From a virus (lineage: Duplodnaviria > Caudoviricetes), in IMG/VR virus record IMGVR_UViG_3300035498_000778, positions 1-64,000 of that record: a stretch of DNA of 64,000 bases; one strand, given 5' to 3'. The position numbers and the translations under genes are program-made. This document shows, one piece after another, positions 680 through 60,332 of the stretch. Every line of letters starts with the position of its first letter. Position 1 is the first letter of the stretch. The notes under the pieces were generated by a model. That model did no database searches. It saw only the letters and a list, made by a program, of their open reading frames with translations, and was not told the DNA's origin.

Positions 680-691
680 AACAAGTATATA
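680..691 (+). promoter_or_regulatory. AR9-type late promoter AACA-N6-TA (major capsid)
   Basis: AACA-AGTATA-TA just upstream of AAGGAG SD; motif recurs before 19 genes. Confidence 0.8.
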
Positions 692-723
692 AATAATTAA
701 AAAAGAAAAGGAGTGGTTCTATT

Positions 724-2526
724 ATGTTAAATTTTTTAACAGAATCAACAAAGGGATTTGAAGAAACACCTACAATAGGTTCTTTTAAAGCTGCAGACCA
801 TGTCAATACATTTGATGACGCTTTCACAGAGGCGGCTAATGATATGATGGGTGTCGCTGACATTATGGTAGATATTAATAAGATTATTAAGAACGACGAT
901 ATCATGGAGTCTTACAAGGACACAATTCTAGCACCTCTAAGAGACTCAGCTGCTCAATACGATAGCCGTATTGCTAGCATTCCCGGTTATGACCCAGATT
1001 GCGATAAGTATAGCAAGCTATATGAGCAAGTATCACAAATGTTTGATAATACTAGATATGACCTTATTTCAGAGGCAGCTCTAGCTGGTCAACTTTTACC
1101 TATCGTAGCTGTTGATTTTCCTATTCTTGTAAAGCAACATCTTAAGGTAGCTTCTAAGGATATCATCCAGACAGAAGTAACTAAGACTCCAGTTATCAAG
1201 AAGCATATTGAAAGAGTTTGGATCGTAGATAATCAGACTAAGAAGAGATGGGAATACCCTAAGTGCTTCTTTGATGATAGTTATAGAGAAATTTTTGCTG
1301 CTGGTAAGGGTCTACCTATTAAGGATACACCTGTTGATATTACAAAGGGTCTATTCAAGTATGACATTATTGGTGAGCTAACTGATGCTCCAGTACCTTC
1401 AAGAGAAGCTATTACAATCGATCTTCAAATTAGAAAGGTTATTGATACAAATGGTGTTGAGATTCCTGTAAAGATGAGAATTAATCTATCTGATGGTGCA
1501 TGGCTTGGTGGTGCTATTGACTATACATATACTGTTACTGATGAAATGGCTGCTGCTAATCCAGAACTAACTGCAGGTGAGGAAGTACACGTTGAAGACC
1601 TCATCACTGGTAATGTTGACTGGGTAACAAATAAGGTAACTATTGCACCTCCAGCAAACGGTCAGATTGTATCCGTAGTATTTGACGGCTATCTATCAAA
1701 CGAACTAAATGAAAGAGGCGTAAGCTTTGACTATACAAGAGAAGAGCTAGAATGGCATATTGAAGACGGCTTCAGAGCTAATATTCCATACAGCGTTGAA
1801 GAACTACAAGATGCTAAGGCTCTTATGAACATTGACCTATACAAGAAGACTTATGATAACATGACTAATCTTCTTGTTCAGATGGAGGACTCTAGTATCC
1901 TAGACTTCCTAGATAAGGAATACGATAAGTACAAGGGTGTAGAACTAGATAAGCTTTCTGGTGAACTAAACCCATTTGTAAGAGAGCAAATTTTTGATTG
2001 CGCTGCTGATAAGCAAACTAGCGCACTACCATCTGAGTACATTCAAGTACAGCTAAAGTGGTTAATTGACAGATTCATCATTGATATCTGCGATACTGCT
2101 AAGCTAGAAGATATGACCTTCGTTATTTATGGTAACCCAAGATACATCTCACTACTAGGTGATGCAGTTAACTGGGTAGTTAAGAATGGTGATATGGTTG
2201 GTGGTGTTAAGGCTAACTATAGCTATGGTGTAATGACTTCTGGTGGTGTTAAGGTACAGATAGTAAGTGTTAACAAGATTAGCGCTACTAAGCACCCATT
2301 CCTAAGAATGATTCCTTACCCAATGAGCCAAGAGCAATACACATTCAAGCAATATAAGTATGCTACTCACATTCTAACTACAACTAATTCTGGATACAAG
2401 GCTCCTGACAGACCAGGTGGATCAATGACCAACCTAATGGGTACTGTTAGATACAAGACTACAGCTGTTCAAGGTATCCAAGCTAAGGTTGGCTTCAGAA
2501 ACGCAAGTTTCATTCTAAATTATTAA
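724..2526 (+). CDS. major capsid protein precursor
   Basis: 600 aa; N-terminal propeptide with h-x-E-S/A sites (LTES, FTEA, IMES, ISEA); HK97-like segment YSVEELQDAKALMNIDL; late promoter, strong codon bias, terminator. Confidence 0.8.
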   Translation: MLNFLTESTKGFEETPTIGSFKAADHVNTFDDAFTEAANDMMGVADIMVDINKIIKNDDIMESYKDTILAPLRDSAAQYDSRIASIPGYDPDCDKYSKLYEQVSQMFDNTRYDLISEAALAGQLLPIVAVDFPILVKQHLKVASKDIIQTEVTKTPVIKKHIERVWIVDNQTKKRWEYPKCFFDDSYREIFAAGKGLPIKDTPVDITKGLFKYDIIGELTDAPVPSREAITIDLQIRKVIDTNGVEIPVKMRINLSDGAWLGGAIDYTYTVTDEMAAANPELTAGEEVHVEDLITGNVDWVTNKVTIAPPANGQIVSVVFDGYLSNELNERGVSFDYTREELEWHIEDGFRANIPYSVEELQDAKALMNIDLYKKTYDNMTNLLVQMEDSSILDFLDKEYDKYKGVELDKLSGELNPFVREQIFDCAADKQTSALPSEYIQVQLKWLIDRFIIDICDTAKLEDMTFVIYGNPRYISLLGDAVNWVVKNGDMVGGVKANYSYGVMTSGGVKVQIVSVNKISATKHPFLRMIPYPMSQEQYTFKQYKYATHILTTTNSGYKAPDRPGGSMTNLMGTVRYKTTAVQGIQAKVGFRNASFILNY

Positions 2527-2547
2527 TATAATAATTAAAATATAAAG

Positions 2548-2673: not shown

Positions 2674-2685
2674 AACAATATTTTA
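2674..2685 (+). promoter_or_regulatory. late promoter AACA-N6-TA
   Basis: AACA-ATATTT-TA. Confidence 0.7.
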
Positions 2686-5378: not shown

Positions 5379-5408
5379 AAACAAGGTTGATTTAATCAAC
5401 CTTGTTTG
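5379..5408. terminator. bidirectional terminator between convergent genes
   Basis: AACAAGGTTGAT-TTA-ATCAACCTTGTT. Confidence 0.75.
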
Positions 5409-5676
5409 TTTCCTCTCGGCTTTGTTTTTGTTTGGCTTCCTCAGAAGCTACTAAGCTTCTCTTATCATCTATCTGGTCTTCAAGCTCTTGATTGATATCT
5501 AGGAGCTTGGCTATAAAGATAGTCTGAGCGACTACACAGATTAGACTTACGATGCCATATATGACTGTATAGACAGGATGTTTCTTCGCAAGCTCTTTGG
5601 ACATCTCGAACTTGTCTTTCCATACATTGACATAGCCGTTTGCTAAGGACTTTAAGATGTTTAATAATGTTTTCAT
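5392..5676 (-). CDS. small single-TM early protein (cargo of cassette copy A)
   Basis: Start re-called at ATG 5676 (AGGAGGT SD); hydrophobic VIYGIVSLICVVAQTIFI. Confidence 0.75.
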   Translation of the reverse strand: MKTLLNILKSLANGYVNVWKDKFEMSKELAKKHPVYTVIYGIVSLICVVAQTIFIAKLLDINQELEDQIDDKRSLVASEEAKQKQSREETNKVD

Positions 5677-5809
5677 AATTATACCTCCTATGGTATGTAA
5701 GATGCACATCCTTATATATTGGAACATAGAAACGATGTGCTAATATTAATTTCTATATTCACAATTATAATATATAATTAAATAGTATGCTATTACGGTA
5801 AATAACAAA
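5668..5809 (-). repeat. cassette copy A: early promoter + pseudoknot leader + RBS + first 3 codons
   Basis: 142 bp, 139/142 identical to 43119..43260 in inverted orientation. Confidence 0.95.
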
Positions 5810-6748: not shown

Positions 6749-6858
6749 GTATTATTTAATTAAGAGAGAACTGGGTTCTCTCTTTTTTGCATATTTTTAG
6801 TTAAGAGCAACAATACTGTAAAATAAATAACTTTAAAAAATTATGGAGGTAAATAAGT

Positions 6859-8178
6859 ATGGAAAAAATTACAACCAAAGAATTGATGGAGCAGTACAAT
6901 GATGTGAAGGATGGTATTCAAACAATAAAGCAAATGATTGATTTGAATATCGAGGCTAATTATGGCTTAAAACCTGAACCTGTATTGACAGCTATCAATA
7001 AGTATAGAGAGACAGATTTTAAGTCTCTAAGTATTGATGAACTCAATGATGTCTTTAATGAGTTTGTATCAATGTCTTTAAAATCTTCAGAAAGTTCAGA
7101 TTTCGAAACAGGTTACAATGCGTTGGATGTAGAATCTATCAAAGACGGAGAAGAAGATCCTAGATATAATTACATCATAAGTTTTCGTGATGAAATCGTA
7201 AAAGATGTGACCACTCTTGAAGATATGGAGGCGAACCTCAAAGAGATTGAGGAAGAAGTCAAGAAGGCTAATGATGAGTATTTTACATATATTAATTCAG
7301 AAGAATACCGTGAAAAGAAGCAACAAGAAATAGAAGATTTAAGAACACGAATAGCGGATCTTCCTGATGGTCCTAAGAGAAAGGAGCTAGAATCTATGCT
7401 AGAAACATTGGAAGATTGCGTAAGTAACGATTACATTTTTAACAGACTGATTGATTCTGATGGTATAGTTAATGATGCTGAGATTCATTCCATTGTCAGA
7501 TCATTCTTCGATCACAATTCATCTAAAATTATTATGAATAAGTATATTAGAAAATGTATAAAGTTAGGTCTTCATGTGGACACATACAAGAACTTTTTCA
7601 ATATTGAGGAAAACATGGAGAATAGATCCGATCTTGTAAATAAAGGAATATATGTATACAACAATTTACTACTTTCTCATTTTGTGAGATTAGTATCTTA
7701 TTGTGATCCAAATAATGAGAGAGAAAGACTTGTGATAGGCGAATTCTTGAAATTCCTAATCAAGATAAGTCAAAATAAATTCAGTAGTCGCGATGATGAA
7801 ACCGATGCTGCTAACATAGTTAATAGATTCTGTGGACTTTTCACAGCTGCAGGATATTATGAAAAGTTCCGTTTAGATAACAGAACTCATCCACTACATA
7901 ACGCTAGATTAGATTCTGAACAAGAAAAGCGTAATGGATATATAGATGAGATAGCAGAACTAATCACTAAAATAAAAGAAGTAAATGGAGAGATCCCAGA
8001 AGATCTACCTAATGCGGATGATGATTTTAGTTATACTACAACACATTCACTATATGAGTATCTATGTTCATATAAAAAGATATATGATGATATTCTTGCT
8101 AGCAAGATAACAAACTCTGTAAGTGATGAAACTGCAGACAAAACTGATTCTGAATCAAATAATGAGATTTCTGAGTAA
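6859..8178 (+). CDS. hypothetical acidic coiled-coil protein
   Basis: 439 aa, GGAGGT SD, late promoter AACA-ATACTG-TA at 6809-6820. Confidence 0.8.
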   Translation: MEKITTKELMEQYNDVKDGIQTIKQMIDLNIEANYGLKPEPVLTAINKYRETDFKSLSIDELNDVFNEFVSMSLKSSESSDFETGYNALDVESIKDGEEDPRYNYIISFRDEIVKDVTTLEDMEANLKEIEEEVKKANDEYFTYINSEEYREKKQQEIEDLRTRIADLPDGPKRKELESMLETLEDCVSNDYIFNRLIDSDGIVNDAEIHSIVRSFFDHNSSKIIMNKYIRKCIKLGLHVDTYKNFFNIEENMENRSDLVNKGIYVYNNLLLSHFVRLVSYCDPNNERERLVIGEFLKFLIKISQNKFSSRDDETDAANIVNRFCGLFTAAGYYEKFRLDNRTHPLHNARLDSEQEKRNGYIDEIAELITKIKEVNGEIPEDLPNADDDFSYTTTHSLYEYLCSYKKIYDDILASKITNSVSDETADKTDSESNNEISE

Positions 8179-10356: not shown

Positions 10357-10471
10357 TTTATAAGTCCTCCTCCAAGTTATTTTTGTTTAATAAATTGTAA
10401 ATCTATATAATTTAATATAAATATTTAAGATATGTAAGCAACATTTAATTAACCGATAAGGAGGGAGATAT

Positions 10472-11200
10472 ATGAGTTCAAGTTTAATGAGATCAGATGG
10501 AATAGATTTATATCTAAATACAGATTACATGGAATTTTATATTCCTGATTATTATTTCGCTGATAATTGCAAATATGCGATTGATTATGGTGCTACAATT
10601 GAAGTCTTCGGAATTTTCTGTGTCGGAATATTTGAAAAGGATAAGCTTAAAGAAATGAAGTTGCTCGAAATTCCAATGAATCTGACAATTCAATCATATG
10701 ATATTGAGATTAGAACCGTAGAGTTTAAGAGTGGACCTATGAAGTGTAGAGTAATGAAATTTATAAAAGGACAAAAGATTATGCCAGCTACATATATTCA
10801 AAAATCATCACACGTTGTTACGTTTATAAAGATGATTCTTAATGGTTATCTACCTTTATTCGTTCCTTATAATGAAGTATACAATATGCTGCTGGGTATA
10901 TGTAAAATGCACAAAGTAAATTTGGGTGTTCCGAACTACGTTCTTGAGATGATGATATCTGACTTATATAGAGATAGGTCGGATCCTACTAAAAAGTTTG
11001 CTATAACGTATGGTAAAGATTCCAAGGTTTCGGACTATGATTACCAAACGTGTAACATCCGTAAAGCATGTCAATATGCATCAACATTCTCTGCAATATC
11101 ATTCGAGGATATAGATACTATGATAACAGCATCTTTGAACAGAAGCGCTCAGGGAAAAGAAGAACCGTTTAGTCCTATGGAAGAAATCATAAAGTTCTAG
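10472..11200 (+). CDS. stand-alone RNA polymerase beta' C-terminal subunit (probably virion RNAP)
   Basis: VNLGVPNYVLEMMISDLYRD and NIRKACQYASTFSAISFEDIDTMITASL resemble RpoC C-terminal KHIEVIVRQM and [21 protein letters not shown]; late promoter at 10440-10451. Confidence 0.7.
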   Translation: MSSSLMRSDGIDLYLNTDYMEFYIPDYYFADNCKYAIDYGATIEVFGIFCVGIFEKDKLKEMKLLEIPMNLTIQSYDIEIRTVEFKSGPMKCRVMKFIKGQKIMPATYIQKSSHVVTFIKMILNGYLPLFVPYNEVYNMLLGICKMHKVNLGVPNYVLEMMISDLYRDRSDPTKKFAITYGKDSKVSDYDYQTCNIRKACQYASTFSAISFEDIDTMITASLNRSAQGKEEPFSPMEEIIKF

Positions 11201-11251
11201 GGACTAATTAGAAACATATAATTAAAAATTAATGAAAAAGGAGTTGGTTTT

Positions 11252-13123
11252 ATGCCTCAAACTGTACAAATCGTACCAAAGTATCAACACCCACATGTTG
11301 AAACATATGTTAACGATTATACTACTTTTGAAGACTCTACAAGTACAACAGCTGCCTCCAGCGGCAGAACATATCTAGCAGTCTTTCAATCGTCTAAGGG
11401 TATTGATAACAAGCTTGTGAAGATAGAGTCATCCACTGATTTTACATATGCATTTGGTAAGTCTGATTATCGTTATTACGGTCAGCCTCTAATGATGCCT
11501 ATTGCTGAATTAGAATCTGGCGCCAGTGTTTGGTGTATGAGAGTCATGCCAGAAGATGCTAAGTATGCTAATAGTGTGCTTTATCTAAATTATAAGACTG
11601 ATAGTAGTACTGGTAAGTTTATTATCAAGTTTACTGCTAAGGCGTTCACTGGTAGTGAAGCTTGTGCTGCATCCACACTAACAACTGCTGCTCTTTCTTC
11701 TAAGGATGAAGATCTAGGCGCAGAATGGACATCTGTTCCTGTTATGCTAATTAGAGCAAACGGTAGAGGAACTTATGGTAATGACTATAGATGGAGAATC
11801 ACTGTAAATAGTAAGCTAGAGAAGGAATACTCAATCAAGATGTTTAGTTTTGAAGCATTAGTTTCTGACGTTTCTAATAGCTTGACATCAGCTGAATTAA
11901 CATCCGCATCTGTTCTACTTCCAACACGTCATGAAGTATCTACATACATAAATGATATTATGGATGAAACAGATAAGTCCAAGTACCAAGTTGAATTTGA
12001 ATGTCTAGATTATAATCTAGAGGATGTTTATACAGCTTATTCTGAGTTTGTTGAAAGTCTTCCTGATGATCTAAAGACATCTAGCTCTATCCCATCACTT
12101 GATCAATTTGACCCATTCTTTGGTCTAATGCCTCTAAGCACATCAAGCGTTTTACCTAACATTGAAATGTCTGATGACGAGGATGCTCTAAAAATTGATA
12201 ATGCTGAGGGTATCGCATTGCTAGGTGGTAATGATGGTGATAATAGTGAGACTACTAAGACTAATCTATATGTCAGCGCATTTAATGGCGACATAGACAG
12301 TAAGATTTTAGTACCAAGAAGAACTCCAGTTGATGCTCTATTCGATGCTTCTTATCCATTTGAAGCTAAGAGAGCACTAGCTAAGCTAGCAAAGTATAGA
12401 GAAGATGCAATACTTTATCTAGATGCCGGCACCGACGTTACAAGTACTAGTGGTATAGAGACAGTGATCAATGATTACAGCACTTCTGAATTTGCTAGTA
12501 ATTACATAGTGAAGGATTTCCAACACTACACAGTTAGAGACCTAACATCTAGACGTCGTGTAGTAGTTTCTATGACTTATCTATACGCACAAAAGCTAAC
12601 AGCTCATCTAGATACTTATGGTATTCATAAGCCATTTGTTAAGAGCTATTGTCAACTAACTGGTCATATAAAGGATTCTCTAGAACCATGTATTGAGATT
12701 ACAGATATGGATCTAAAGGATAAGCTATACACAAATAGATTTAACTACTTTGAAGCAATTGATGAGAATCTATTCCAAAGATCATGTCAAAATACTGCAC
12801 AAACTGCAAACAGTGATTTGCTTGAAGAATCTAATATGCGTGTTCTAATCTACTTAAAGTCTAATCTTGAAAGAGATTGTATTGATGATCTATATAACTT
12901 CTCATCTCTTGAAGATAGAAATAGATTTACTAGACTTGCTATGGCTAAGTATAGTCCTATGGTTGGCGTTTCTCTTGAATCATTGAATATCTACTTCGAT
13001 CAAAATGAATGGGAACTTGAGCGTTCTATTCTTCACTGCTACGTATCCGTTACATTCAGAGGAATTCATAAGAGAACTATTGTTGAGATTGATGTCAACA
13101 AGCGTAGTCTAGAGACAGAATAA
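11252..13123 (+). CDS. tail sheath protein
   Basis: HPHVETYVND N-terminus, SSKGIDNK, FGKSDYRYYGQP, WCMRV, GRGTYGN, C-terminal sheath domain; precedes tube; late promoter 11213-11224. Confidence 0.85.
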   Translation: MPQTVQIVPKYQHPHVETYVNDYTTFEDSTSTTAASSGRTYLAVFQSSKGIDNKLVKIESSTDFTYAFGKSDYRYYGQPLMMPIAELESGASVWCMRVMPEDAKYANSVLYLNYKTDSSTGKFIIKFTAKAFTGSEACAASTLTTAALSSKDEDLGAEWTSVPVMLIRANGRGTYGNDYRWRITVNSKLEKEYSIKMFSFEALVSDVSNSLTSAELTSASVLLPTRHEVSTYINDIMDETDKSKYQVEFECLDYNLEDVYTAYSEFVESLPDDLKTSSSIPSLDQFDPFFGLMPLSTSSVLPNIEMSDDEDALKIDNAEGIALLGGNDGDNSETTKTNLYVSAFNGDIDSKILVPRRTPVDALFDASYPFEAKRALAKLAKYREDAILYLDAGTDVTSTSGIETVINDYSTSEFASNYIVKDFQHYTVRDLTSRRRVVVSMTYLYAQKLTAHLDTYGIHKPFVKSYCQLTGHIKDSLEPCIEITDMDLKDKLYTNRFNYFEAIDENLFQRSCQNTAQTANSDLLEESNMRVLIYLKSNLERDCIDDLYNFSSLEDRNRFTRLAMAKYSPMVGVSLESLNIYFDQNEWELERSILHCYVSVTFRGIHKRTIVEIDVNKRSLETE

Positions 13124-16475: not shown

Positions 16476-16565
16476 AATATTTTTCTCCTTTCAAATTCTT
16501 TAATCATTATCTTAATGTTAAATTTACGAATTTTTATCATACAGGAAATAATCCTGTATGATAAT

Positions 16566-17264
16566 TTAAATTCCTATATAATAATAGTACATCTGAATAT
16601 TAATTCCCTCTATTGACGTTAGTATAACTAACATGTAGGTTATATTGTGTGCGGGAATTGTAAAATACTTTGTTGTTTGAAACGTTTTCGTCGTTACTGT
16701 TGGTAATAACGCTTTACTAATAGTAACAGATGGTATATCCTTATTAGTAGGTCCTAAAGAGAAAGCTTCATTTTCATTAAATACTTTATCATATAGATTC
16801 TCCACATTTTTTAGATATACATAATTACTTTCTGGTAATGAACTATAATCTTCATATTTTGTGATTATGTTCTGTATTTGTGATATTAATTCTTTAAAAG
16901 CGTTACCACCATCGTTTGTAATCTTTGTGTATAATTGTATATTATCACTCATGTAATCGGCAAATTTATCTTTGTCAAAATCTTTTCCACTAGTGCTAAG
17001 TTTCAAATCTTTTGGTGTACATTTTAATAAATCACTATTGGTAAAATTATTAATATCCAATGAGTTGATGTATTGATGGAAAAGATCATTAAGTTTATCG
17101 TCTAGTTTGACAACAAATCTACCAATATGTGTCTCTATAGCTAGATCAGAGAACAAATCTACAATATAACCATCATATGTTATAATTACATCAGATTTAA
17201 AAAAAGAAAATAGCTTAACAAAGATGTTGTTTATCTTTTTTAAATCACTTATTTCAATATTCAT
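16566..17264 (-). CDS. hypothetical protein
   Basis: 232 aa, GAAAGGA SD, flanked by hairpins. Confidence 0.75.
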   Translation of the reverse strand: MNIEISDLKKINNIFVKLFSFFKSDVIITYDGYIVDLFSDLAIETHIGRFVVKLDDKLNDLFHQYINSLDINNFTNSDLLKCTPKDLKLSTSGKDFDKDKFADYMSDNIQLYTKITNDGGNAFKELISQIQNIITKYEDYSSLPESNYVYLKNVENLYDKVFNENEAFSLGPTNKDIPSVTISKALLPTVTTKTFQTTKYFTIPAHNITYMLVILTSIEGINIQMYYYYIGI

Positions 17265-17333
17265 AGTATATTTCCTTTCTTTTTATTATTAAGTATGTAA
17301 CAGAGAAATCTGTTACATACTTGTTTTTATCAT

Positions 17334-44367: not shown

Positions 44368-44474
44368 TTATGTATATAATATATGCGAAGCAATTCGCAT
44401 ATATTTTTTGTGCAAATTTTACCTATCCCCCAACATAATAGTAATCAAAATAAAAATAGAAAGGTTGAATAATT

Positions 44475-45257
44475 ATGAGTGAATTATTTGGAGAGTACTA
44501 TGATATAGATAGTCACAGTATTTTAAAAGGTGTATCTGTGGATTTAATAATAGAATACTTAAAGGAGCAAATGGTTGATCCTTATAACTTAAGTACAAGA
44601 AACTATGTTGATGAATTTATAGGTGACTATGAATATTCTAAAAAGTGTGTAATAGAAGGAAATGAAGAAGCTGATGATATTAACGATACGGAACTAGATG
44701 AAGAGCTAGCTAGAGTAGAAGGGTATAGAAACAGGTTCATTGAATTCGTAAGAGGATTATTTTATAATAATTTATCAATAGGACTTAATGAATTTGATGA
44801 TATAGCACCTGATAAGCAGGATAAAATCTTGTCCGTTGTATATAGGTATTTTGTATTGAATATTAAGCGTAATTTCCTTAATTTATGTGAAGGATATATT
44901 GAAGAGCATAGGAATGATTTGGCTAAAGTTTATAAGAGAAACGGTGACATCACGGCGTTAGCACAAAAAACACGTGTTACTGATCCAATCGATATGATCA
45001 TCATTTCATCGCTGCCAGAGATTATTAATGAGATTATGAATATCGAATATCCTATTGACGAGTTCGTTGTCCATACATATGGTCTAGAACCTCCTGAGTA
45101 TGATGCAGTATTAGTCAAGGAATTAATTGATAAAGATATTATAACTGGTAACTTTGTACCACATTATAAAAAGCTTGCTAGCGATTACTTACTTAATGAT
45201 ATTGAATTCATCATAAAATCAAGCATATTGAGTAAGTATAATGCTGAGAAAGAATAA
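44475..45257 (+). CDS. hypothetical acidic protein
   Basis: 260 aa; AACA-N6-TA at 44432-44443. Confidence 0.8.
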   Translation: MSELFGEYYDIDSHSILKGVSVDLIIEYLKEQMVDPYNLSTRNYVDEFIGDYEYSKKCVIEGNEEADDINDTELDEELARVEGYRNRFIEFVRGLFYNNLSIGLNEFDDIAPDKQDKILSVVYRYFVLNIKRNFLNLCEGYIEEHRNDLAKVYKRNGDITALAQKTRVTDPIDMIIISSLPEIINEIMNIEYPIDEFVVHTYGLEPPEYDAVLVKELIDKDIITGNFVPHYKKLASDYLLNDIEFIIKSSILSKYNAEKE

Positions 45258-46826: not shown

Positions 46827-46906
46827 TTTAGAGGAAACCGCATTTTTTATTAACTGTAAACAATAGTATAAATTAAATTTCAAATTTTTATGGAGGAAAT
46901 TGTTTT

Positions 46907-48853
46907 ATGAGTACAGAAAAACTAGAAAGAGAAAATGCCACATTTGGCGAAAGGCATGGCTTACATTTAGAGCCAATGTCTAACACACTAGGTAAGAGTG
47001 AATTCCAAACAAGAGTTAAAAAGGTATTTGCAGCTATTGCAGATAAGATTGGAAAGTCATTAGGACCCGGTGGCGAAACAACTTTTATTGCAAATTACCC
47101 TTATGTCCACCCAACAAAGGATGGTTATACAATCATGAAGAATCTAAGTTTTGACTTGTTCATCGATGATATAATTAAGGATATGGCGGATAAAGTTTGT
47201 AGTAGATTAAACTATAGTGTCGGTGACGGTACTACAAGTGCTATTATGGCTACTAACGCAGTTTATGATTCAGTAGCAACATCTCTAGATACCTATGGGT
47301 ACAAGTCAAGAGAAATAACTGAAGCATTTGATGAGATTCGTGAGGAAGTTGTTTCAGCTATGAAACAAGTAGCTATTGATATCCGCACAGATGATTCTAC
47401 GGAACTAGCACAGCGAGTACGTGAGATAGCATCTATATCATCTAACGGTAACGATGAAATTATTAACATAGTTACTGATTTATATTCTACTCTTATGTAT
47501 CCAGCTATTACAGTGGTACTAGCTAAGGATGGTGTGACTAAGTCAAGAATTATAAGAGGATATGAAGCTGAGGTACTATTAACTGATAAGATGTACATAA
47601 ATAATGATGATAATACAATGAATATTAATTCAGGTGACGTTATCGTTTTTGACCATAAGGTTAACGAGAATACATACAAGAGTATCATAAAGCCTTTAAA
47701 TGAAGAATGTAAGGCTAGGGGTAGAAAGTTGGTCGTTATTGCACCTTTTTATGATGAGGTAGCTTTAACAGGTATCATTAGACGTGATATTCTTGACGAA
47801 TACAACAAGGGAAAGTCAGTGAACCTAGTATTGACTGCTTGTAGAAACATGAATAGTAATCACAAGAACATGATTGCAGATTTAGCCATGTTATTGAATA
47901 CAGAGCTAATCACTAGCGGTAGAGAAGAAGAAATCGTTAAATCTACAGCTAGAGATAATATTCAAAGATTCTTTAACCTAGACGATAGAGCTATTGATGG
48001 TATATCTGTAGCAGCCTTAGGTTTAGATGTTGAGACTAAGAGCCCATATCTTTATATAGTTCCTGAGGAGGATAGAGCTAACCATAAGTTTATAGACTGG
48101 ACACTGGAGGAAGATCAAAAAACACCAACGGGTATCAGTCGTATTCGTGTAGGATTCGCTCGTAATATTGAATTAGGTCTTGGTTCATCTATCTTTGGTG
48201 ATTTTGTTTATAACGAAGACTTGTATAACAAGTTCTTGCAAGATGCAAAGATAGACTTAGAAGAGACTGTCGAAAAGTATAAGAAGCTAGGCTCGTTTAG
48301 TACTGAGGTTGTAAACAAGCAAAAGAGATTATATCGTCTAGGAATGAAGATGGGTATAATTGAAGTAGGCGGAGAATCTGATATATCTCAGAAGTATCTA
48401 AAGGATGCTGTTGATGATACAGTAAGAGCAGTAGAATCTGCATACAATCATGGTATTGTACAAGGTTGTCATGTAACACTTGTTGATGTATTGAAGTCCA
48501 TTGTTACTGGCTATAGAAAGTTGGTTAATGATGGCGAAATCGTATCAGAAGATGCCATAGAACACAACAAGTTGAAGATTATGCTAGTCTCATCCTTAAT
48601 TACTGGATTTACATCAGTATATGAATCAGTCCTAAGAAATGCTGATATATCTGATGATGACATTAGTAGTATTACCACAGAATCAAGTAAACAGGTAATT
48701 GCTTACAACATCATGACAAAGTCATATGATGGTACAGTAATCAATAGTTGTGAGACTGATATTGAAATTCTCCGTGCGGTTATAGATTTAGTGGGACTAA
48801 TAGTGACTGCTAATCAGTTAGTAATTTGTGAAGGAAGAAATGGTGATCAGTAA
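46907..48853 (+). CDS. groEL: phage GroEL-like chaperonin
   Basis: SLGPGG, TKDG, VGDGTTS, IEVGG..DAVDD; no GroES adjacent. Confidence 0.9.
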   Translation: MSTEKLERENATFGERHGLHLEPMSNTLGKSEFQTRVKKVFAAIADKIGKSLGPGGETTFIANYPYVHPTKDGYTIMKNLSFDLFIDDIIKDMADKVCSRLNYSVGDGTTSAIMATNAVYDSVATSLDTYGYKSREITEAFDEIREEVVSAMKQVAIDIRTDDSTELAQRVREIASISSNGNDEIINIVTDLYSTLMYPAITVVLAKDGVTKSRIIRGYEAEVLLTDKMYINNDDNTMNINSGDVIVFDHKVNENTYKSIIKPLNEECKARGRKLVVIAPFYDEVALTGIIRRDILDEYNKGKSVNLVLTACRNMNSNHKNMIADLAMLLNTELITSGREEEIVKSTARDNIQRFFNLDDRAIDGISVAALGLDVETKSPYLYIVPEEDRANHKFIDWTLEEDQKTPTGISRIRVGFARNIELGLGSSIFGDFVYNEDLYNKFLQDAKIDLEETVEKYKKLGSFSTEVVNKQKRLYRLGMKMGIIEVGGESDISQKYLKDAVDDTVRAVESAYNHGIVQGCHVTLVDVLKSIVTGYRKLVNDGEIVSEDAIEHNKLKIMLVSSLITGFTSVYESVLRNADISDDDISSITTESSKQVIAYNIMTKSYDGTVINSCETDIEILRAVIDLVGLIVTANQLVICEGRNGDQ

Positions 48854-49632: not shown

Positions 49633-49706
49633 ATAAACGATTATATATTATAATGATGATATAACAACCGAATATGTTTTGTCTTTCGAAAGGAGAAATT
49701 ATTATC

Positions 49707-51248
49707 ATGAGTATGATTCCAAAAATAACTAAGTGGAAAAACAACGGTAAAGTGAAACTTGTTGATTATGACAACAAGCAATTTATAATTCACTTTGATG
49801 AGAAGTTGAATAATCCCGCGTTAGCATGCTACAATACGTTCATTATCAACAAAACTAGTTATGCAAATAAGTTAGATTCTATAAGCAGATATATAGCTTA
49901 TTTCATGAAGTACTATGATGAAGATGACGAACTACTGATGGCGTATTTAAAACTTAAGCATGATGTCGATGTTGTACATAAGTACACAGCCGATAATATG
50001 GATGAGTTTATAAACGATTTGTATGAGATTATGTTTACACCTTCAATCGAGCATAACCTTGACCAACTTGTAGAGTATAATAACGTTATTGACATTGAGT
50101 CTGACGACGACGGTAAAAAACAATACAAGACGACTAAGAAGTATGTGGAAAGTCTAGAGTTCACAAATAAGCACGTATCGTTATTATACAAGATAAGTTT
50201 TTGTATGAAGATGATAATACCCATCATGATGCACTACTTCGTAGTCAATAGGATTAAACCTAATAGTGATGAGAGTGGGAATATTTATAAATTCTTTGAG
50301 CCACTAATGGGTTCTAGATTTTCCAGTGAGATTAATATATACAACAAGTTATACGTGTATGTTAAATGCAAAATCCAAGAGAACCGTTCTCAAAATAGTA
50401 CTATCTATGAGCAGCGTGATATCTTTGGTAAGGACATCTCTACTTTGACGCAAGAATTTCTACGTAAGAAACTGATAACCGAGAATTTGTTTAAATATGA
50501 ATTTAATGGTAACCCTGTTGCATTAAACAAGACTATCGTGCAATCTCAATTAGGATATTTCATCAAAGAGAAGTATACTAAAACTATGACTCTTGTTAAT
50601 ATGGAACAGAATGGTGATGGACTATCAGGTATGGAAAAACTAGAAATGAGCATGGCTAAACTCGATGAAGGTATGCTAATATTTGCAGAAATTAACATAG
50701 CAAACGCCATAGAATCAATAAGAAACAGATACCAGTTCGATATAGGCGAAGATGAGTTACAATATATGATTCAATACCATATACCTTGTGAACTACAGAT
50801 AGAATTGATAACTCTGTTCTTTACTAAATACTTTGGCGAGTCCAGGAATATAAAACTATGCAATAAGAGGCAATACTGTACACTAGCTTTAATTTTAAAG
50901 AAACTATTACTAACGATGGAAGCTAATGAAACAGGTCAATTGGATATCAGTTATCTACCTTATGTGTTAACTGGTAATCTAGATGGAAAGGTTGAAGAAT
51001 CTATTATCAGAAACAACAAATTTGTTAATAAGCTACAAGCGTCTCCCAAGTATCAACAGTTAATTAATACAAAATATAAAGCTTTGGAAGAAATTCGTCC
51101 AGATACAATTTTGCTACTAATATCTTCTCTATGCAAGACACATTTTACCTATGTTACTCCTGAATATAAAGAAAAAACAGGAGAACCAATAGATACTAAT
51201 AAAAACAAGTTAGCATATGAGATGATTAATCTACTTTCATTAGCATAG
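49707..51248 (+). CDS. probable non-virion RNAP promoter-specificity subunit (AR9 gp226/phiKZ gp68-like)
   Basis: ~513 aa helical protein two genes from GroEL (as AR9 gp228/gp226); early promoter 49641-49654; called from synteny and size only. Confidence 0.5.
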   Translation: MSMIPKITKWKNNGKVKLVDYDNKQFIIHFDEKLNNPALACYNTFIINKTSYANKLDSISRYIAYFMKYYDEDDELLMAYLKLKHDVDVVHKYTADNMDEFINDLYEIMFTPSIEHNLDQLVEYNNVIDIESDDDGKKQYKTTKKYVESLEFTNKHVSLLYKISFCMKMIIPIMMHYFVVNRIKPNSDESGNIYKFFEPLMGSRFSSEINIYNKLYVYVKCKIQENRSQNSTIYEQRDIFGKDISTLTQEFLRKKLITENLFKYEFNGNPVALNKTIVQSQLGYFIKEKYTKTMTLVNMEQNGDGLSGMEKLEMSMAKLDEGMLIFAEINIANAIESIRNRYQFDIGEDELQYMIQYHIPCELQIELITLFFTKYFGESRNIKLCNKRQYCTLALILKKLLLTMEANETGQLDISYLPYVLTGNLDGKVEESIIRNNKFVNKLQASPKYQQLINTKYKALEEIRPDTILLLISSLCKTHFTYVTPEYKEKTGEPIDTNKNKLAYEMINLLSLA

Positions 51249-51292: not shown

Positions 51293-51337
51293 TTTTAATA
51301 ACAGTTAGTTAAATTAATAAAAGGAGATTATACTATT

Positions 51338-52354
51338 ATGGAAATACGTGAATTAAAGTCACAGATAATACAGTCTATTATTACTAGACCTGTATTCTCA
51401 AAATATAATGGGGATGAATTAGTTACTAAGTGCCCTTTTTGTGGAGATAACAATAAATTAGACGACGGTCATTTATATATACAAACCAATGAACTCGATG
51501 ATTCCAAACCGATGTTATATCACTGCTTTAAATGTAATGAGAGTGGTAAAGTGAACACGGAGTTATTGGAACTACTAGATATCTTCGATGATGAGATAAA
51601 TTCAGATCTTAGTAGAATGAATAAATCTAAATATAAGATAGTAAATGTTAAGAATAACGAATTGAAAACTTATAAATGGAAGATGCCAATCGCCACAAAA
51701 AGGGACATCAACAAAATACAATATATTGAAAAACGCCTAGGCATTAAGCTCAACAAGTATATATACGATGATGCAAAAATTGTGCCTAATCTTAAAGATT
51801 TTCTTAGATTAAATGAACTAACCGCAACCTGCAAAGATGATATGCTTGATATTGTGTCAAATAATTTTGTAGGTTTTATGACTTCACGAGGTACACATAT
51901 ATGGTTTAGAAACATTAAGGATAGCGGTGAAATACGATGGTATAAGTACCCCATTATTCACTGTACTGCGGGTAAAAACTATTATTCTATAAAAACGGAA
52001 ATAGATATATTGAGCCCTGACAATATTAATATCAACTTATGTGAGGGCGTGTTTGACGCATTATCCATTGCATACAATTTATGCTATGAGAGTGATTTAA
52101 ACATAGCAGTCGGATCTACAGATTATTTACCAGTCATCAATCACATTATATCATTGGGACTAGTGGGAGATAATATAACACTGAATATATACAGTGATAA
52201 TGACAATAATGCGACAACGTCAATACAAAATTATAGGAGATTACTATATGGTTTCAAACCAATATTTAAGGAAATTAATATATATTATAATTTATTAGAG
52301 AAAGATTGTGGTGTGCCCAGAGAAAAGATAAGATTGAAAAAAGAGATAATATAA
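51338..52354 (+). CDS. DNA primase (T4 gp61-like)
   Basis: CPFCGD...YHCFKC zinc ribbon; TOPRIM LCEGVFDAL and YSDND. Confidence 0.85.
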   Translation: MEIRELKSQIIQSIITRPVFSKYNGDELVTKCPFCGDNNKLDDGHLYIQTNELDDSKPMLYHCFKCNESGKVNTELLELLDIFDDEINSDLSRMNKSKYKIVNVKNNELKTYKWKMPIATKRDINKIQYIEKRLGIKLNKYIYDDAKIVPNLKDFLRLNELTATCKDDMLDIVSNNFVGFMTSRGTHIWFRNIKDSGEIRWYKYPIIHCTAGKNYYSIKTEIDILSPDNININLCEGVFDALSIAYNLCYESDLNIAVGSTDYLPVINHIISLGLVGDNITLNIYSDNDNNATTSIQNYRRLLYGFKPIFKEINIYYNLLEKDCGVPREKIRLKKEII

Positions 52355-53234: not shown

Positions 53235-53337
53235 TAATAAAAACTCCTTTCATTTGTGCTTATTATGTATACTGTTTTTAAATAGTTCATAACAATAATG
53301 TAATAAAATTTTTATAACTTGAAAGGATTGATAAATA

Positions 53338-53775
53338 ATGATAACAAAATTTGAGGGCGACTACGATTATTTAAATATGTTTCACAACTGTTCAGTGACA
53401 TTTGAAGGTAGAACATATCTCAACGCATATGCGGCTTATCAAGCAAGTAAATGTGCTAATGAAAACGACAAACGTGCATTCACTAGATTAAATGCCCTCA
53501 AGGCTAAGAAGAGGTCTCGTACCATTACTGCTAGAGACGATTGGGATAAAATAAAGTTTGATATCATGTATAAGATACAAGAGGCAAAGTTTACACAGAA
53601 TGAAGACTTGAAGGAAAAACTATTAAAAACTAAGGGTCTAATTGTTAACAACACAAGTTATCCTGATAAAGACTACGGAGTACATAATGGACGAGGCAAG
53701 AACGCATTAGGAGCAATCTTAATGGAATTACGTGATAATTTATTATCACAGGAAAGAGATCAAACCGAGGAATAA
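53338..53775 (+). CDS. NADAR (YbiA-like) family protein
   Basis: YQASK, RDDWDKIK..IM, AKFTQN..LKEKLLKT, GKNALG.ILMELR. Confidence 0.85.
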   Translation: MITKFEGDYDYLNMFHNCSVTFEGRTYLNAYAAYQASKCANENDKRAFTRLNALKAKKRSRTITARDDWDKIKFDIMYKIQEAKFTQNEDLKEKLLKTKGLIVNNTSYPDKDYGVHNGRGKNALGAILMELRDNLLSQERDQTEE

Positions 53776-53835: not shown

Positions 53836-54099
53836 TTAACGACTATAAAATCTTCTTTCATTATATACATTTTCCATCATGCCTTTCTTTAGGACATATC
53901 TGAAATCAAAGTCCAATGGTCTATTAATTCCTAATGCCTTATATAAATCTTTTCGATATGAAATATCATGCTTGTAATCGTAAAATCCTATGTCTGTCAT
54001 CCATTCTTCATATCCCTTATCATATAGTCGCACATCAATGTTTGTTCCTTCAATCCATTTTTCCCTCTTCTTATTCTTCAAAAACAGCATTAATATCAT
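53836..54099 (-). CDS. small hypothetical protein
   Basis: GAAAGGA SD; AACA-TTAATA-TA at 54138-54149 (minus). Confidence 0.6.
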   Translation of the reverse strand: MILMLFLKNKKREKWIEGTNIDVRLYDKGYEEWMTDIGFYDYKHDISYRKDLYKALGINRPLDFDFRYVLKKGMMENVYNERRFYSR

Positions 54100-54178
54100 A
54101 TCCTTTCTCTTGTTCTACATAATATTTTTTCTTTCTATATATTAATGTTTGTTTTGAGTATATGATAAATAATCGTTA

Positions 54179-56341: not shown

Positions 56342-58939
56342 ATGAGAATAACATATATCAAATTGGTTAATTTCATAAATTTTTATAATTGCCTAGAGAC
56401 GACAGAAGTGTCAATAGATTTAAGTGAAGCTAATAATAGGATACTATTGATTACTGGAGCAAATGGAACTGGAAAGACGTCTTTACTATCAACACTACAT
56501 CCGTTTGCTACAAACGGTACCATGGATGTTAGAAGTGATAACAGTCTAATCAGAAAAGGTGAAGAAGGGTACAAAGAGATCCACATACAAGACGGATCAC
56601 ACAAATATGTGATAAAACATTTTTTTTCACCAAAAGGAGATACACATAGCGTAAAGTCGTACATCGCCAAAGATGACGTAGAGTTAAACACGAATGGAAA
56701 TGTTACATCCTTTAAAGCGATTATAAGCGAAGAATTAGATATGGAGCCAGAATACTTGAAACTAATGAGACTAGGCTCTAATGTTACTAATTTTATAGAC
56801 CAAAAAAGTACTGATAGAAAAAACTACATGAGTAAGATATTAGATGATGTAGATTTATTCATGAAATATTATAAGGTAAGTACTAATAAAATTAGAGAAC
56901 TTAAAACCATTATATCTCATTTATCGGATAAACTCAATAAACTAAATATATCAAATATAGATGAATATGTACTTGACATTGAAACTCAGAAAGAAAAGCT
57001 CACTGTAATAGAAACGAAAATAAAAGAACTAGAGCAGAAGCAAGCCATTTATAATCATGAAGTTGAAACTAGAGATGGTATAGGTGATATCACATCTGAA
57101 ATAGCTGTGTTGCAAGCTAAATTAAAAAAAGTTGATAAAGATGATCCTGAGGTGCAGTCAATATCTGATTGTGAGATAGCGATAGCAAATTTAGAAGAAA
57201 GACAAAATACTCTGAAACAGGAAATTGAGGTATCAAAATCATTACATGAAAATAATTTGAACCAATTATCAGAATTATCTTTAGAAATAAATGAATGCGA
57301 ATGTGAGATAGAAAAAGCTGAATTAGCATTTAAACTTCACGACTTAAGTAAAGAACGCGATGATATAGATGACAGAATAAAAAATATTTATAAGATTCAT
57401 AAAGATTTCGTGGACAGAGATGCATATCCATATACAAAGTCTGAACTAGAATTGTTGATATCCGCTTTATTGACATGCAATGAATTAGCAAGTACAATTA
57501 AGTCGTACAATCACGATGCATTAGTAAGAGTAACAGAATTAATAGAGAGCGGAAGTGATGTCAAAAGTGAAATAAGCAAGGGTTATTATTTATTATCGCA
57601 GAAGAGAACATCGCAAGAAGCTTACATGATAATAAATAAATTCATCGATGATATAGCAGATTGCCAGCCTAGTTGTGAGAATCAATCATGTCCACTTATG
57701 AAATTCTGGAACAAATATAAATCATTAAACACACATGTTGATCAGTCTGACAGTATGGGAGAGGATTATTATGAAGATATGTCGATTATTAATAACACTA
57801 TCATCTCTATCAATAAAACCCTTGAAAATTCTATAGGAATAATCAATAAACTTCCTGTTGAATTACAGATATTCTTAAGTCAGAAAGCTATGTTTGATAA
57901 TTTGATAAGGAATAGAGAATGCGTAGATATAAAACCATTTAATAAGCTATTATCAGATATAAGCGAATATGAATATCTTCAAGAACTTATTAAAGAATAT
58001 GATGCTATAGAAAAACGAATATCTCTAGCTAAAACCGATAGTAATATGGATTATTTAGAAAGAAGATTGTCTGAGTTGAACTGTAGAGTCGACGAACTTT
58101 CATCTTCCAACAGAGGTTTGCTTAATAAAATAGATACTAATACTAAGTCACTTAAGATATGTGAGAAGGACTTGGATAATATCACTACACTTTATGATAT
58201 ATTTTTGAATGTACAAGAAATAAGAGAATGTATATCAGAACTTAGAGAACAAGAGGAAGAAGTAAGCAAGTATCAATCTTTATTGAGTGAAGTCTCTGCA
58301 CATTTATCCAATTTACGTATTACACAAGTTAATATGAGTAGAGAAATAAACCAAGCGGACTATAAGATTAATGAGTACAATAATTTGATTGATGAATTTA
58401 ATAAGTACAATAAGAAGTACGACAAACAAATGCTAGTCCATAGAGCACTAAGTACAAAAGAAGGTATACCATTGAAATTCATTGAGATGTACTTTAAAAA
58501 GACTAATATGATAACTAATGATTTATTATATGCGGTGTACGGAGATTCGCTACAATTGAATCAGTTTGTTATTAATTCTGATGAATTCAAAATTCCTTAT
58601 ACTGTAAGAAATATGACTATACCTGACGTAGCATATGCAAGTCAAGGTGAAAAATCGTTTATTTCATTAGCGTTGTCGTTCGCTCTTGCATCACAAAATT
58701 TGACTAGATATAATATAATGCTTTTAGACGAGGTTGACGGTGTACTTGACAAATCAAAACGTGAAATGTTTATGCCGATTTTGGATACCCAGCTTGACAT
58801 GGTAGATGGTGAGCAAGTTATTCTGATATCACACAATTTTATGTTTGATAGTACACCTGTCGATGTTATAGACATGAGTAACAATGATAGAAATAACGAA
58901 TTGCCACTGGCGCACTATATTAAACTAAATATAAAGTAA
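56342..58939 (+). CDS. SbcC/Rad50-like SMC ATPase
   Basis: Walker A GANGTGKT, coiled coil with CENQSCP hook-like motif, signature ASQGE, Walker B MLLDEVD, ISH; start re-called. Confidence 0.9.
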   Translation: MRITYIKLVNFINFYNCLETTEVSIDLSEANNRILLITGANGTGKTSLLSTLHPFATNGTMDVRSDNSLIRKGEEGYKEIHIQDGSHKYVIKHFFSPKGDTHSVKSYIAKDDVELNTNGNVTSFKAIISEELDMEPEYLKLMRLGSNVTNFIDQKSTDRKNYMSKILDDVDLFMKYYKVSTNKIRELKTIISHLSDKLNKLNISNIDEYVLDIETQKEKLTVIETKIKELEQKQAIYNHEVETRDGIGDITSEIAVLQAKLKKVDKDDPEVQSISDCEIAIANLEERQNTLKQEIEVSKSLHENNLNQLSELSLEINECECEIEKAELAFKLHDLSKERDDIDDRIKNIYKIHKDFVDRDAYPYTKSELELLISALLTCNELASTIKSYNHDALVRVTELIESGSDVKSEISKGYYLLSQKRTSQEAYMIINKFIDDIADCQPSCENQSCPLMKFWNKYKSLNTHVDQSDSMGEDYYEDMSIINNTIISINKTLENSIGIINKLPVELQIFLSQKAMFDNLIRNRECVDIKPFNKLLSDISEYEYLQELIKEYDAIEKRISLAKTDSNMDYLERRLSELNCRVDELSSSNRGLLNKIDTNTKSLKICEKDLDNITTLYDIFLNVQEIRECISELREQEEEVSKYQSLLSEVSAHLSNLRITQVNMSREINQADYKINEYNNLIDEFNKYNKKYDKQMLVHRALSTKEGIPLKFIEMYFKKTNMITNDLLYAVYGDSLQLNQFVINSDEFKIPYTVRNMTIPDVAYASQGEKSFISLALSFALASQNLTRYNIMLLDEVDGVLDKSKREMFMPILDTQLDMVDGEQVILISHNFMFDSTPVDVIDMSNNDRNNELPLAHYIKLNIK

Positions 58940-58965
58940 GAAGAGGGATTTCCTCTTCTTACTTT

Positions 58966-60204
58966 TTACATAGATCTTGGTCTAGAATCATCAAGGATAT
59001 CTTCAACCATACTATTTACATACTCAACGTTTACATATATTAATATCTTATATGTGTAATATACGCCGCATCTTATGAACTTAATTTTCATATTTTCCAT
59101 ATCAACTATATAGTTAACTCCACTAGTCATAGGTTTTCCCTGTTGACGTATTCGAATATCTATGAAGTTTGTCCACGGAACGCCTGTAGCAATATGTCTT
59201 CGTATTACATGTTTTAAGCTGGCATTAAACAATGATGATATATCGATTTCATCATTTGGGTTATCCAATTTACATGATGGCTGTGTATATAATTGCCATC
59301 CGTCTTTTAAATCATAATCTTCCGCACATATAACATCAGTATATACAGGTATGATTGTAGCGTTATCAGGAACAGGTAATGTCATAGTTTTATTAAGTTT
59401 ATTAGAAAATAAGTAATAGAATCCAGTTCCCCAAAACTCTGCTCGAATATTAAATGATAATTGATACTGACTCATTACTTGTCCTACCTTTTCGCCTTCG
59501 TCTGTGCTTAATCCATTAATTATTGTGTCAATGTTAAGTGGATAGTATCTGTAAAACTCTGTACTATTAGTACTTCCCTGAAGCCTGTACGTAATCGGAT
59601 ATCTAGATATTCCGTTTAGATATTTGACAAACGGTTCAACAGAACCAGAAGCGTCTAACATCGGGACTCCAGATATATCCGAGATGATTTTCATTAGGTC
59701 AGGTGATAAGTAACTCTCTGCAGCGGTATTTATAGTTATACTACGAGTATTGCCTATATTATTTCTTATAAACGTTGCGTAGTTTATTTGCTCCATAAGG
59801 GTTGAGAATATTAATACAACATCGAAGTTTAATACACAACGGTCTAATTTAAATTTCATGCATATATTATGCTTTCTATCTAATATAAAATCTTCAAGGT
59901 TTGTACCACCATATTTACTATAAATATCTGTCATTCTTTCGTTCACCAATGTTTCGCCCATGAACATGTTAGAACTGTCCCAATCTATTCTAGGACGTAA
60001 TATCATCATAGGTTTCTCTTTTTTAAATACCTCATTTGTTGTAGATCTTAACTGCTTATGGGCTATTTTGCTATTCACATGAATCGTCTTAAATAGTCCT
60101 TGTGGGAACATGTCTAAAATCTTTTTTTGGATAATAGCTGTTATGTTACCATATGTGTGTGCTGAAGATGTTAAACATGAAATATAGTTTATGCCCTCAT
60201 TCAT
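58966..60204 (-). CDS. hypothetical late protein (possibly tail/neck)
   Basis: 412 aa; AACA-ATTCTT-TA at 60229-60240 (minus). Confidence 0.7.
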   Translation of the reverse strand: MNEGINYISCLTSSAHTYGNITAIIQKKILDMFPQGLFKTIHVNSKIAHKQLRSTTNEVFKKEKPMMILRPRIDWDSSNMFMGETLVNERMTDIYSKYGGTNLEDFILDRKHNICMKFKLDRCVLNFDVVLIFSTLMEQINYATFIRNNIGNTRSITINTAAESYLSPDLMKIISDISGVPMLDASGSVEPFVKYLNGISRYPITYRLQGSTNSTEFYRYYPLNIDTIINGLSTDEGEKVGQVMSQYQLSFNIRAEFWGTGFYYLFSNKLNKTMTLPVPDNATIIPVYTDVICAEDYDLKDGWQLYTQPSCKLDNPNDEIDISSLFNASLKHVIRRHIATGVPWTNFIDIRIRQQGKPMTSGVNYIVDMENMKIKFIRCGVYYTYKILIYVNVEYVNSMVEDILDDSRPRSM

Positions 60205-60332
60205 TTATAAATCACATCCTTTCATTTTTAAAGAATTGTTAACATGTGGATAAATTAATACCTAGCAAACATTAAGTTAATCCTTTTGGATACAAATAAT
60301 AAACGAGAGTTAAATACGGAGGATGATTAAGT

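Follow-up and report, generated by a model that had tools for sequence, protein, structure and literature searches.

The non-virion RNA polymerase (nvRNAP) of Bacillus phage AR9 is the textbook case of a template-strand promoter that needs a non-canonical base. Its late consensus is 5′-A(-11)ACA-N6-T A/G(+1), which the holoenzyme reads on the template strand as 3′-UUGU-N6-AU, and thymine at -11 or -10 abolishes the recognition (PMC7598289, PMC9209446). The uracil requirement has been proposed as a way to avoid transcribing the host DNA, and the literature searched links the close orthologues of the promoter-specificity subunit, gp226, to uracil-DNA phages only. Here, we describe the AACA-N6-TA motif, a gp226 homologue and thymidylate genes in and just beyond the first 64 kb of the single 124,892-bp IMG/VR virus contig IMGVR_UViG_3300035498_000778. 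This whole 64-kb stretch is called the window below. We consider it likely that an AR9-type promoter system operates there on thymine DNA.

In AR9, the -10 uracil pocket is made of the gp226 2.1bis helix and the β-N subunit, and Val206 blocks the C5 methyl group of thymine; at -11, it is the backbone of the DNA that keeps this group out (PMC9209446). Val206 is reported as 'absolutely conserved' in the close gp226 homologues of uracil-DNA phages (PMC9209446). With the engineered V206G, U and T are equally good at -10, so that the promoter is readable on thymine by an AR9-type holoenzyme in principle (PMC9209446). The phiKZ-type phages (Chimalliviridae) are the other described system to be compared, as thymine-DNA jumbo phages with two multisubunit RNA polymerases (RNAPs) and a fifth, sigma-like subunit (gp68). 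Their late consensus, however, is TATG at the start site and not AACA-N6-TA (PMC7598289). Their RNAP similarity to the phage studied here is far lower, with very long outgroup branches in the β′C tree.

Judging from its proteins, the contig comes from an uncultured jumbo phage that is a distant relative of AR9/PBS1. Its completeness is rated about 52%, the other half of the genome being unseen, and the guanine-cytosine (GC) content is 31–37%. A query with window positions 44001–52000 gave no DNA-level match to the phage collection. The AR9/PBS1 group holds the nearest cultured relatives, with only 22–40% protein identity, and by β′C the closest cultured phages are those of the AR9/S6/phiR1-37 group, with only 24–28%.

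Despite this distance, the AACA-N6-TA core, its spacing to the start codon and the downstream gene classes are the same as in AR9/PBS1 (PMC5312081, PMC5449584, PMC9209446; PDB 7S01, 7UM0, 7UM1). Shared as well are the gp226 fold and neighbourhood (GroEL-like, hypothetical, gp226, primase), the split β′ subunit and the early promoter before the nvRNAP genes. We found no published report of an AR9-type system on thymine DNA in the literature searched.

Placement of the late-promoter motif

The initial annotation of the window had listed 19 AACA-N6-TA sites upstream of genes with a Shine-Dalgarno (SD) sequence. All 19 are real, being exact on the strand given for each and lying 32–68 nt upstream of an SD-led start codon, but the list had missed at least two more, at 17314(-) and 49663(+) (Table 1). 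It had taken the motif for the AR9 consensus with deoxyuridine (dU) needed at -11/-10 of the template, in agreement with the published work (PMC7598289, PMC9209446).

Over the whole window the motif occurs at chance, 72 times against 83.3 ± 8.7 in the shuffles. Nevertheless, the intergenic DNA, 4.9 kb of the window, wholly contains 23 of the 72 sites, with 7.7 ± 2.8 expected. On the whole contig, the upstream spacers contain 48 sense-strand sites, where shuffles that preserve dinucleotides give 9.0 ± 2.8 (z 13.8) and mononucleotide shuffles 8.8 ± 2.9. The spacer motif precedes 46 of the 115 contig genes and 22 of the 58 window genes. Thus, we call it a positional signal, as it is enriched in the upstream spacers despite the chance count of the whole window.

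The enrichment is specific to both the spacing and the letters. The N5, N7 and N8 spacings are at chance and N4 is slightly raised (z 3.3). Chance levels are also seen for permuted words (ACAA, AAAC, CAAA), for the neighbours TACA, AATA and AAGA, and when TA is replaced by AT, AA or TT. Moreover, AACA-N6-TA was the best word other than the ribosome-binding site in an unbiased scan of all 4-mer/gap/2-mer words.

For 42 of the 48 sites, the first A is 29–69 nt ahead of the start codon, and the median is 44 nt. AR9, put through the identical pipeline as positive control, gave 65 sites against 17.7 ± 3.9 and a matching median of 43 nt. The A of TA is the probable transcription start. Beyond the letters fixed by the search, three positions are conserved: 30/42 sites have A in front of AACA, 33/42 have T two bases behind it and 37/42 have A following TA. 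These extra A at -12, T at -6 and A at +2 distinguish the motif from that of AR9, where they are weak or absent.

The motif precedes orthologues of the AR9 late genes for capsid, sheath, portal and virion RNAP β′, and also the replication and nucleotide genes for primase, DnaB, dUTPase and ThyX. Terminators are enriched in the window (16 against 4.5 ± 1.9), and the motif sites often follow them, whereas sigma70-like sites are at chance (91 against 88.7 ± 8.4 expected). Sigma70-like sites at chance together with enriched terminators fit a transcription independent of the host polymerase.

The sites are retained in relatives. In G024, G015 and AR9 (G numbers denote IMG/VR genomes of the comparison), the capsid orthologue likewise has the motif in front of it. 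More broadly, AACA-N6-TA stands before the capsid, g125-like, sheath, portal, g214-like, g165-like and virion RNAP β′ orthologues in most of G000, G001, G024, G015 and AR9, across 28% to 41% GC. Overall enrichment in relatives is moderate, with 39 sites against 15.5 ± 4.0 in G001 and 35 against 14.3 ± 3.7 in G024. We hold AACA-N6-TA to be very probably a genuine AR9-type late promoter, and the enzyme reading it would be the non-virion polymerase with its gp226 homologue.

The specificity subunit

The product of 49707..51248, which the initial annotation had put forward as a candidate specificity subunit, is a gp226 homologue. By tblastn it matches AR9-group phages only (E 5e-9), and blastp against AR9 gp226 gives 1e-18. 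A 33-member clade profile aligned by hhalign to the six cultured AR9-group gp226 proteins gives 99.7% probability (E 6e-27, 460 columns). Its AlphaFold model (AF2; predicted local distance difference test score 80.3) has AR9 gp226 as the best PDB matches in Foldseek (7s01_A, E 2.9e-16; 7um0_A), and the third-best is phiKZ gp68 (8que_B, E 2e-6). A phmmer search against the PDB sequences missed AR9 gp226, and the homology rests on tblastn, blastp, hhalign and the fold search.

The gene keeps the synteny with AR9 g228-g227-g226-g225 behind an AR9-like early promoter. Its family has >220 metagenomic members, some of them on 230–290 kb contigs. As to the other subunits, nvRNAP β′N and β′C are present on the contig along with the gp226 homologue; the β halves of the holoenzyme are not on this half-genome contig and are found in the complete relatives.

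The 2.1bis helix is where the homologue departs from AR9. In the profile alignment, AR9 D204, V206, I207, W208 and Y210 pair with N230, T232, I233, Y234 and Q236, and T200, Y202, D204, V206 and W208 align with N, S, N, T and Y. The cultured AR9-group proteins all share the AR9 residues T200, Y202, D204, V206, I207 and W208, so Val206 and other invariant residues are replaced here. In the clade the helix reads N-S-x-I-F/Y-x-Q versus D-V-V-I-W-T-Y in AR9, and with Thr232 the window protein lacks the conserved Val206 that characterizes the helix in the gp226 family. N230 is invariant in the clade, whose position 232 varies widely over 33 members and 24 genomes (P, L, T, V, H, Q, N, S, A, M, I, R, K). 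The β-N pocket residue R363 aligns with S or R and K375 with N in two relatives, weak evidence at such low identity.

The initial annotation had proposed to model the protein against AR9 gp226 and inspect the dU pocket. The model's fold does match 7S01_A, but Thr in place of Val206 does not explain how T would be accepted. We also tried the Val206-equivalent residue as a predictor of DNA chemistry over 24 genomes and rejected it, as there are genomes in which Val is accompanied by dUTPase and ThyA, and G024 has Thr but none of the dUTPase and thymidylate-synthase genes.

Thymidylate genes and the chemistry of the DNA

The initial annotation had read 43651..44367 as a five-motif dUTPase, which is correct. 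The product matches Pfam PF00692 (40 bits), PHROG 135 (1e-35), 3h6x as the best PDB entry and an NCBIfam model also. All five motifs align with those of the solved dUTPases (3h6x, E. coli Dut), with the Asp of motif 3 and the GFGSTG of motif 5 in place, and the protein has a ~75-residue N-terminal extension and a ~26-residue insert. Relatives G003, G011 and G023 have orthologues of the same subfamily. The gene makes a self-contained unit of a terminator (43567–43587), the motif at 43612, the gene and another terminator (44378–44405).

A regulated or atypical dUTPase had been offered as the alternative, with KSG in motif 2 pointed out. An atypical or inactive enzyme is not supported, as the motifs are intact and Lys and Arg alternate at this position among the clade orthologues, in a comparison that leaves out rows G001, G002, G004 and G005. 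Hence, the motif 2 Lys is not a sign of inactivity.

The initial annotation had also proposed to look for thymidylate synthase, Ugi and dCTP deaminase in the rest of the genome. A gene for the synthase ThyX was found on this contig at a distance of 1.1 kb from the end of the window. Its product scores 150.8 bits with PF02511 (cut-off 24.8) and has the RHR-X7-S signature as RHRLASFTQES, and the gene is preceded by the late-promoter motif AACAATTTAGTA. No ThyA-family gene was found on the contig. With their intact motifs, dUTPase and ThyX are predicted to turn dUTP into dTMP. Less than 3 kb beyond ThyX are genes for an NrdG-type radical-SAM activase (Fer4_12, contig 68598..69116), which suggests an anaerobic host, and for a family-2 glycosyltransferase (69129..70172).

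AR9-type Ugi and dCTP deaminase were found neither in the contig nor in three complete relatives. The dU-DNA enzymes of AR9 include Dcd and Dtm (PMC12697855), and tblastn with Dcd (g221), Dtm (g151) and Ugi (g104) gave no match in the contig (~52% of the genome) or these relatives, where the nvRNAP β halves were found at 27–35% identity as sensitivity control. The Ugi query picks up AR9 and BpSp only and misses S6 and phiR1-37, so that little can be concluded from its absence in other genomes. A scan with PF06941, the Dtm family, was uninformative with no match even in the AR9 positive control, and uracil-DNA glycosylase (PF03167) was found in none of the genomes. Thus, the contig, holding ~52% of its genome, lacks the gene content of the PBS1/AR9-type uracil-DNA phages and, unlike AR9/PBS1, has dUTPase and ThyX.

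The gene content separates the clade from the cultured phages. Among six cultured gp226-bearing phages, AR9, BpSp, LPJP1, S6, phiR1-37 and SA1, dUTPase-family and ThyA genes are both found in 0/6 and ThyX in 0/5 tested. Five of the six are shown or reported to have uracil DNA, whereas for LPJP1 uracil DNA is a presumption based solely on its gp226 and tree position. The comparison set was 24 near-complete IMG/VR relatives carrying the gp226 homologue, and thymidylate synthase is present in 21–22 of them (ThyA 13/24, ThyX 8/24), with thymidylate kinase in 4/24. Only G004, G011 and G024 are without any thymidylate synthase, and G020 has only a weak ThyX match below the family cut-off.

A dUTPase-family match occurs in 16 of the 24 relatives, two of which (G018, G020) look like dCTP deaminase with the motifs GRSSYGRLG and GWVDPGF. 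The deep subclade G018–G021 is as distant from the window phage as AR9 is. The 282-kb G024 is the sole complete relative without dUTPase, ThyA and ThyX; it keeps the late motif and has Thr at the Val206-equivalent position. It relies on the host dTTP or is a candidate for a different DNA chemistry within the clade. In the β′C tree, the six cultured AR9-group phages make one split (Shimodaira-Hasegawa-like approximate likelihood ratio test, SH-aLRT, 95) and 20 clade genomes the other (SH-aLRT 90); the root is not firmly placed as the outgroup branches are too long.

As dUTPase and ThyX are encoded and no AR9-type uracil-DNA enzymes are recognizable, we are fairly confident that the phage DNA contains thymine. 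The infection would then proceed as follows. The virion RNAP would read AT-rich early promoters (TATATTATAAT) to express the non-virion polymerase genes including the gp226 homologue. The non-virion enzyme with this subunit would start at aAACAnT-N4-TAA, probably at the A of TA, ~25–40 nt upstream of the late genes for capsid, sheath, portal, virion proteins, virion RNAP β′, primase, DnaB, dUTPase and ThyX. The dUTPase and then the flavin-dependent ThyX would convert dUTP to dTMP. The polymerase would have to accept T at template -11/-10, where the AR9 enzyme demands dU.

Several points weigh against such a system on thymine DNA. The thymine composition is deduced from gene content and the late start sites from motif positions. 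A uracil-DNA toolkit unlike AR9's could sit in the missing half of the genome, as the toolkits differ between phage groups (PMC12697855), and the β halves forming part of the -10 pocket are absent from the contig. The overall motif enrichment is absent in the more distant relative G015. Furthermore, the Val206-equivalent Thr is as bulky as Val, and five dUTPase-bearing relatives, four of them also with ThyA, keep Val there. Hence, the simple model that a smaller side chain admits the methyl group fails to explain the tolerance of T.

For the same reasons, the natural clade does not follow the engineered V206G route. It has no Gly at the aligned position, where T, V, P, L, R, K and others are found, and the relatives with Val also carry thymidylate genes. 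V206G does not address -11 either, where T must also be accepted. As AR9 excludes T at -11 by the backbone conformation, a T-tolerant subunit would need a different DNA path.

It is unlikely that the genome is uracil DNA, its polymerase reading dU, with dUTPase and ThyX serving host-pool manipulation, regulation or a non-depleting expression. This would suit a promoter identical to one that the AR9 enzyme reads only on dU and a Thr, or Val in relatives, that would clash with the C5 methyl group in the same geometry. Half the genome is unseen, dU-DNA enzymes vary enough between phage groups to make the absence of AR9-type ones weak evidence, and three or four relatives are without thymidylate synthase, G024 without dUTPase too. 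However, both enzymes have complete catalytic motifs and stand as late-type transcription units of their own, and the dUTPase subfamily is conserved across the clade. Thymidylate synthase is in 21–22 of the 24 complete relatives versus none of the cultured gp226 uracil-group phages, and the uracil-specific invariant 2.1bis residues are not kept. PBS2, moreover, inhibits dUTPase instead of making one (PMC12697855).

It is quite improbable that another modified pyrimidine, such as a 5-substituted uracil, replaces thymine with dUTPase supplying the dUMP. The 5-hydroxymethyluracil (hmU) phages set the precedent, using dUTPase to feed a ThyA-like hydroxymethylase. The glycosyltransferase and the radical-SAM protein near ThyX would also fit, as might the ThyA-family genes of thirteen relatives, whose specificity is presumed from the family. 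However, the contig has no ThyA-family gene beside ThyX, for which no role other than dTMP synthesis is known. The radical-SAM protein resembles the activases of anaerobic ribonucleotide reductase (Fer4_12), the proteins scanned include no hmU kinase or the like, and the AR9-type pocket would accommodate a bulkier C5 group even less well.

Finally, that AACA-N6-TA is another 5′-leader signal, acting in RNA processing or in translation, or simply results from AT-rich spacers, is very improbable; the motif is short and at chance over the window, but its strand- and spacing-specific enrichment, its geometry like that of mapped AR9 promoters (PMC7598289), its places behind terminators, its conservation at orthologous late genes and the cognate specificity subunit all speak for a promoter.

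Genomic context and meaning

Exact copies of the early-promoter motif TATATTATAAT are ten in the window, at 5764(-), 5817, 26311(-), 39026, 43154, 45267, 49644, 52281, 54203 and 62118. They are usually inside TTATATATTATAAT, match the AR9 early promoter core aaaTATATATTATaaaa and precede small genes and the gp226 homologue. With one mismatch allowed there are 29 sites against 16 ± 5 expected. The virion RNAP presumably uses them as promoters. The sequence TATATTAT stands before the nvRNAP subunit genes in G000, G015 and AR9, and the early promoter in front of the gp226 homologue is of this type, as it is in AR9. With both an early promoter and the AACA-N6-TA at 49663, the gp226 homologue may belong to the continuously expressed class, which is described for AR9 (PMC7598289).

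Two small genes, 5392..5727(-) and 43201..43545(+), are preceded by nearly the same ~70 nt, made up of an early promoter, a leader and then ATGTTC; the copies of this repeated promoter-leader cassette are at 5728–5800 (-) and 43130–43200 (+). The virion RNAP β′ is encoded by one fused 931-aa gene, with an N-terminal part like AR9 g145 and a C-terminal part like g264, whereas AR9 has a gene of its own for each part, both of them rich in introns. Contig 88080..89288, directly downstream of the nvRNAP β′N gene, encodes a homologue of g271, the HNH homing endonuclease that in AR9 sits within the β′N gene g270. The YbiA/NADAR product has 41% identity to AR9 g140 and matches the NCBIfam 'NADAR family anti-phage protein' below threshold. 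A terminase gene also lies farther along the contig, past the window.

Table 1. Motifs and genes of the window and, where marked 'contig', of the contig beyond it
Feature	Position	Strand	Remark
Late motif	680..691	+	before capsid gene
Late motif	2674..2685	+	68 nt before SD-led start at 2742
Late motif	6809..6820	+	before 6859..8178
Late motif	10440..10451	+	before AR9 g125 orthologue; kept in G001, G024, G015
Late motif	11213..11224	+	before tail sheath gene
Late motif	16508..16519	-	before portal gene
Late motif (additional)	17314..17325	-	61 nt before 16566..17264(-)
Late motif	19475..19486	+	before AR9 g213 orthologue
Late motif	26363..26374	+	before AR9 g214 orthologue; kept in G001, G024, AR9
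Late motif	30534..30545	+	before 30580..31941
Late motif	34225..34236	+	before 34267..35760
Late motif	39564..39575	+	before 39601..40869
Late motif	43612..43623	+	before dUTPase gene
Late motif	44432..44443	+	before 44475..45257; 43 nt to ATG at 44475
Late motif	46859..46870	+	before GroEL-like gene
AACA-N6-TA (additional)	49663..49674	+	44 nt before gp226 homologue
Late motif	51300..51311	+	before primase gene; AR9 g225 likewise has motif
Late motif	53291..53302	+	before YbiA/NADAR gene
Late motif	54138..54149	-	before 53836..54099(-)
Late motif	60229..60240	-	before 58966..60204(-); divergent pair with 60268
Late motif	60268..60279	+	before 60333..60776
Early-promoter motif TATATTATAAT	49644..49654	+	before gp226 homologue; AR9 has annotated early promoter at same place
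Major capsid protein	724..2526	+	AR9 g117 orthologue
Virion protein	10472..11200	+	AR9 g125 orthologue
Tail sheath	11252..13123	+	AR9 g126 orthologue
Portal	14163..16475	-	AR9 g128 orthologue
DNA polymerase part	17334..19217	-	AR9 g132
Virion protein with SH3 domains	19517..21844	+	AR9 g213 orthologue
Minor virion protein	26409..27803	+	AR9 g214 orthologue
DNA polymerase part	40965..43079		AR9 g152
Trimeric-type dUTPase	43651..44367	+	238 aa; motifs AGYD, PKSGLG, GLVDADYY, KIIQGVF, RNGGFGSTG
GroEL-like	46907..48853	+	AR9 g228
gp226 homologue, nvRNAP promoter-specificity subunit	49707..51248	+	513 aa
Primase	51338..52354	+	AR9 g225
YbiA/NADAR family	53338..53775	+	AR9 g140
SbcC	56342..58939		AR9 g139
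ThyX	contig 65139..65837		
nvRNAP β′N	contig 86504..87802		
Fused virion RNAP β′	contig 101969..104764	-	
nvRNAP β′C	contig 120654..122708	-	

The initial annotation had suggested that the phage may be a thymine-DNA lineage that keeps the AR9 promoter. The gene content fits such a lineage, but 'keeps' may reverse the direction, since the two groups are sisters. We lean slightly to the view that the promoter system predates uracil DNA, that this clade naturally reads thymine and that the strict dU requirement of AR9 is a later specialization. Besides the sister relation, thymine DNA is found in jumbo phages that encode RNAPs and are more distantly related (PMC7598289), which allows for such an order. 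If so, the remodelled 2.1bis helix would give natural T-accepting -11/-10 pockets. More speculatively, the conserved A at -12, T at -6 and A at +2 may compensate for the loss of uracil as a mark that distinguishes phage from host DNA.

A natural clade with the same promoter and factor plus a thymidylate pathway opens the question of how the C5 methyl group is accommodated in the -11/-10 pockets. By the same token, neither gp226 nor the AACA motif alone should be used to predict uracil DNA. The clade bears on whether the uracil dependence is ancestral or derived, and on how such a polymerase stays off the host DNA without the uracil mark.

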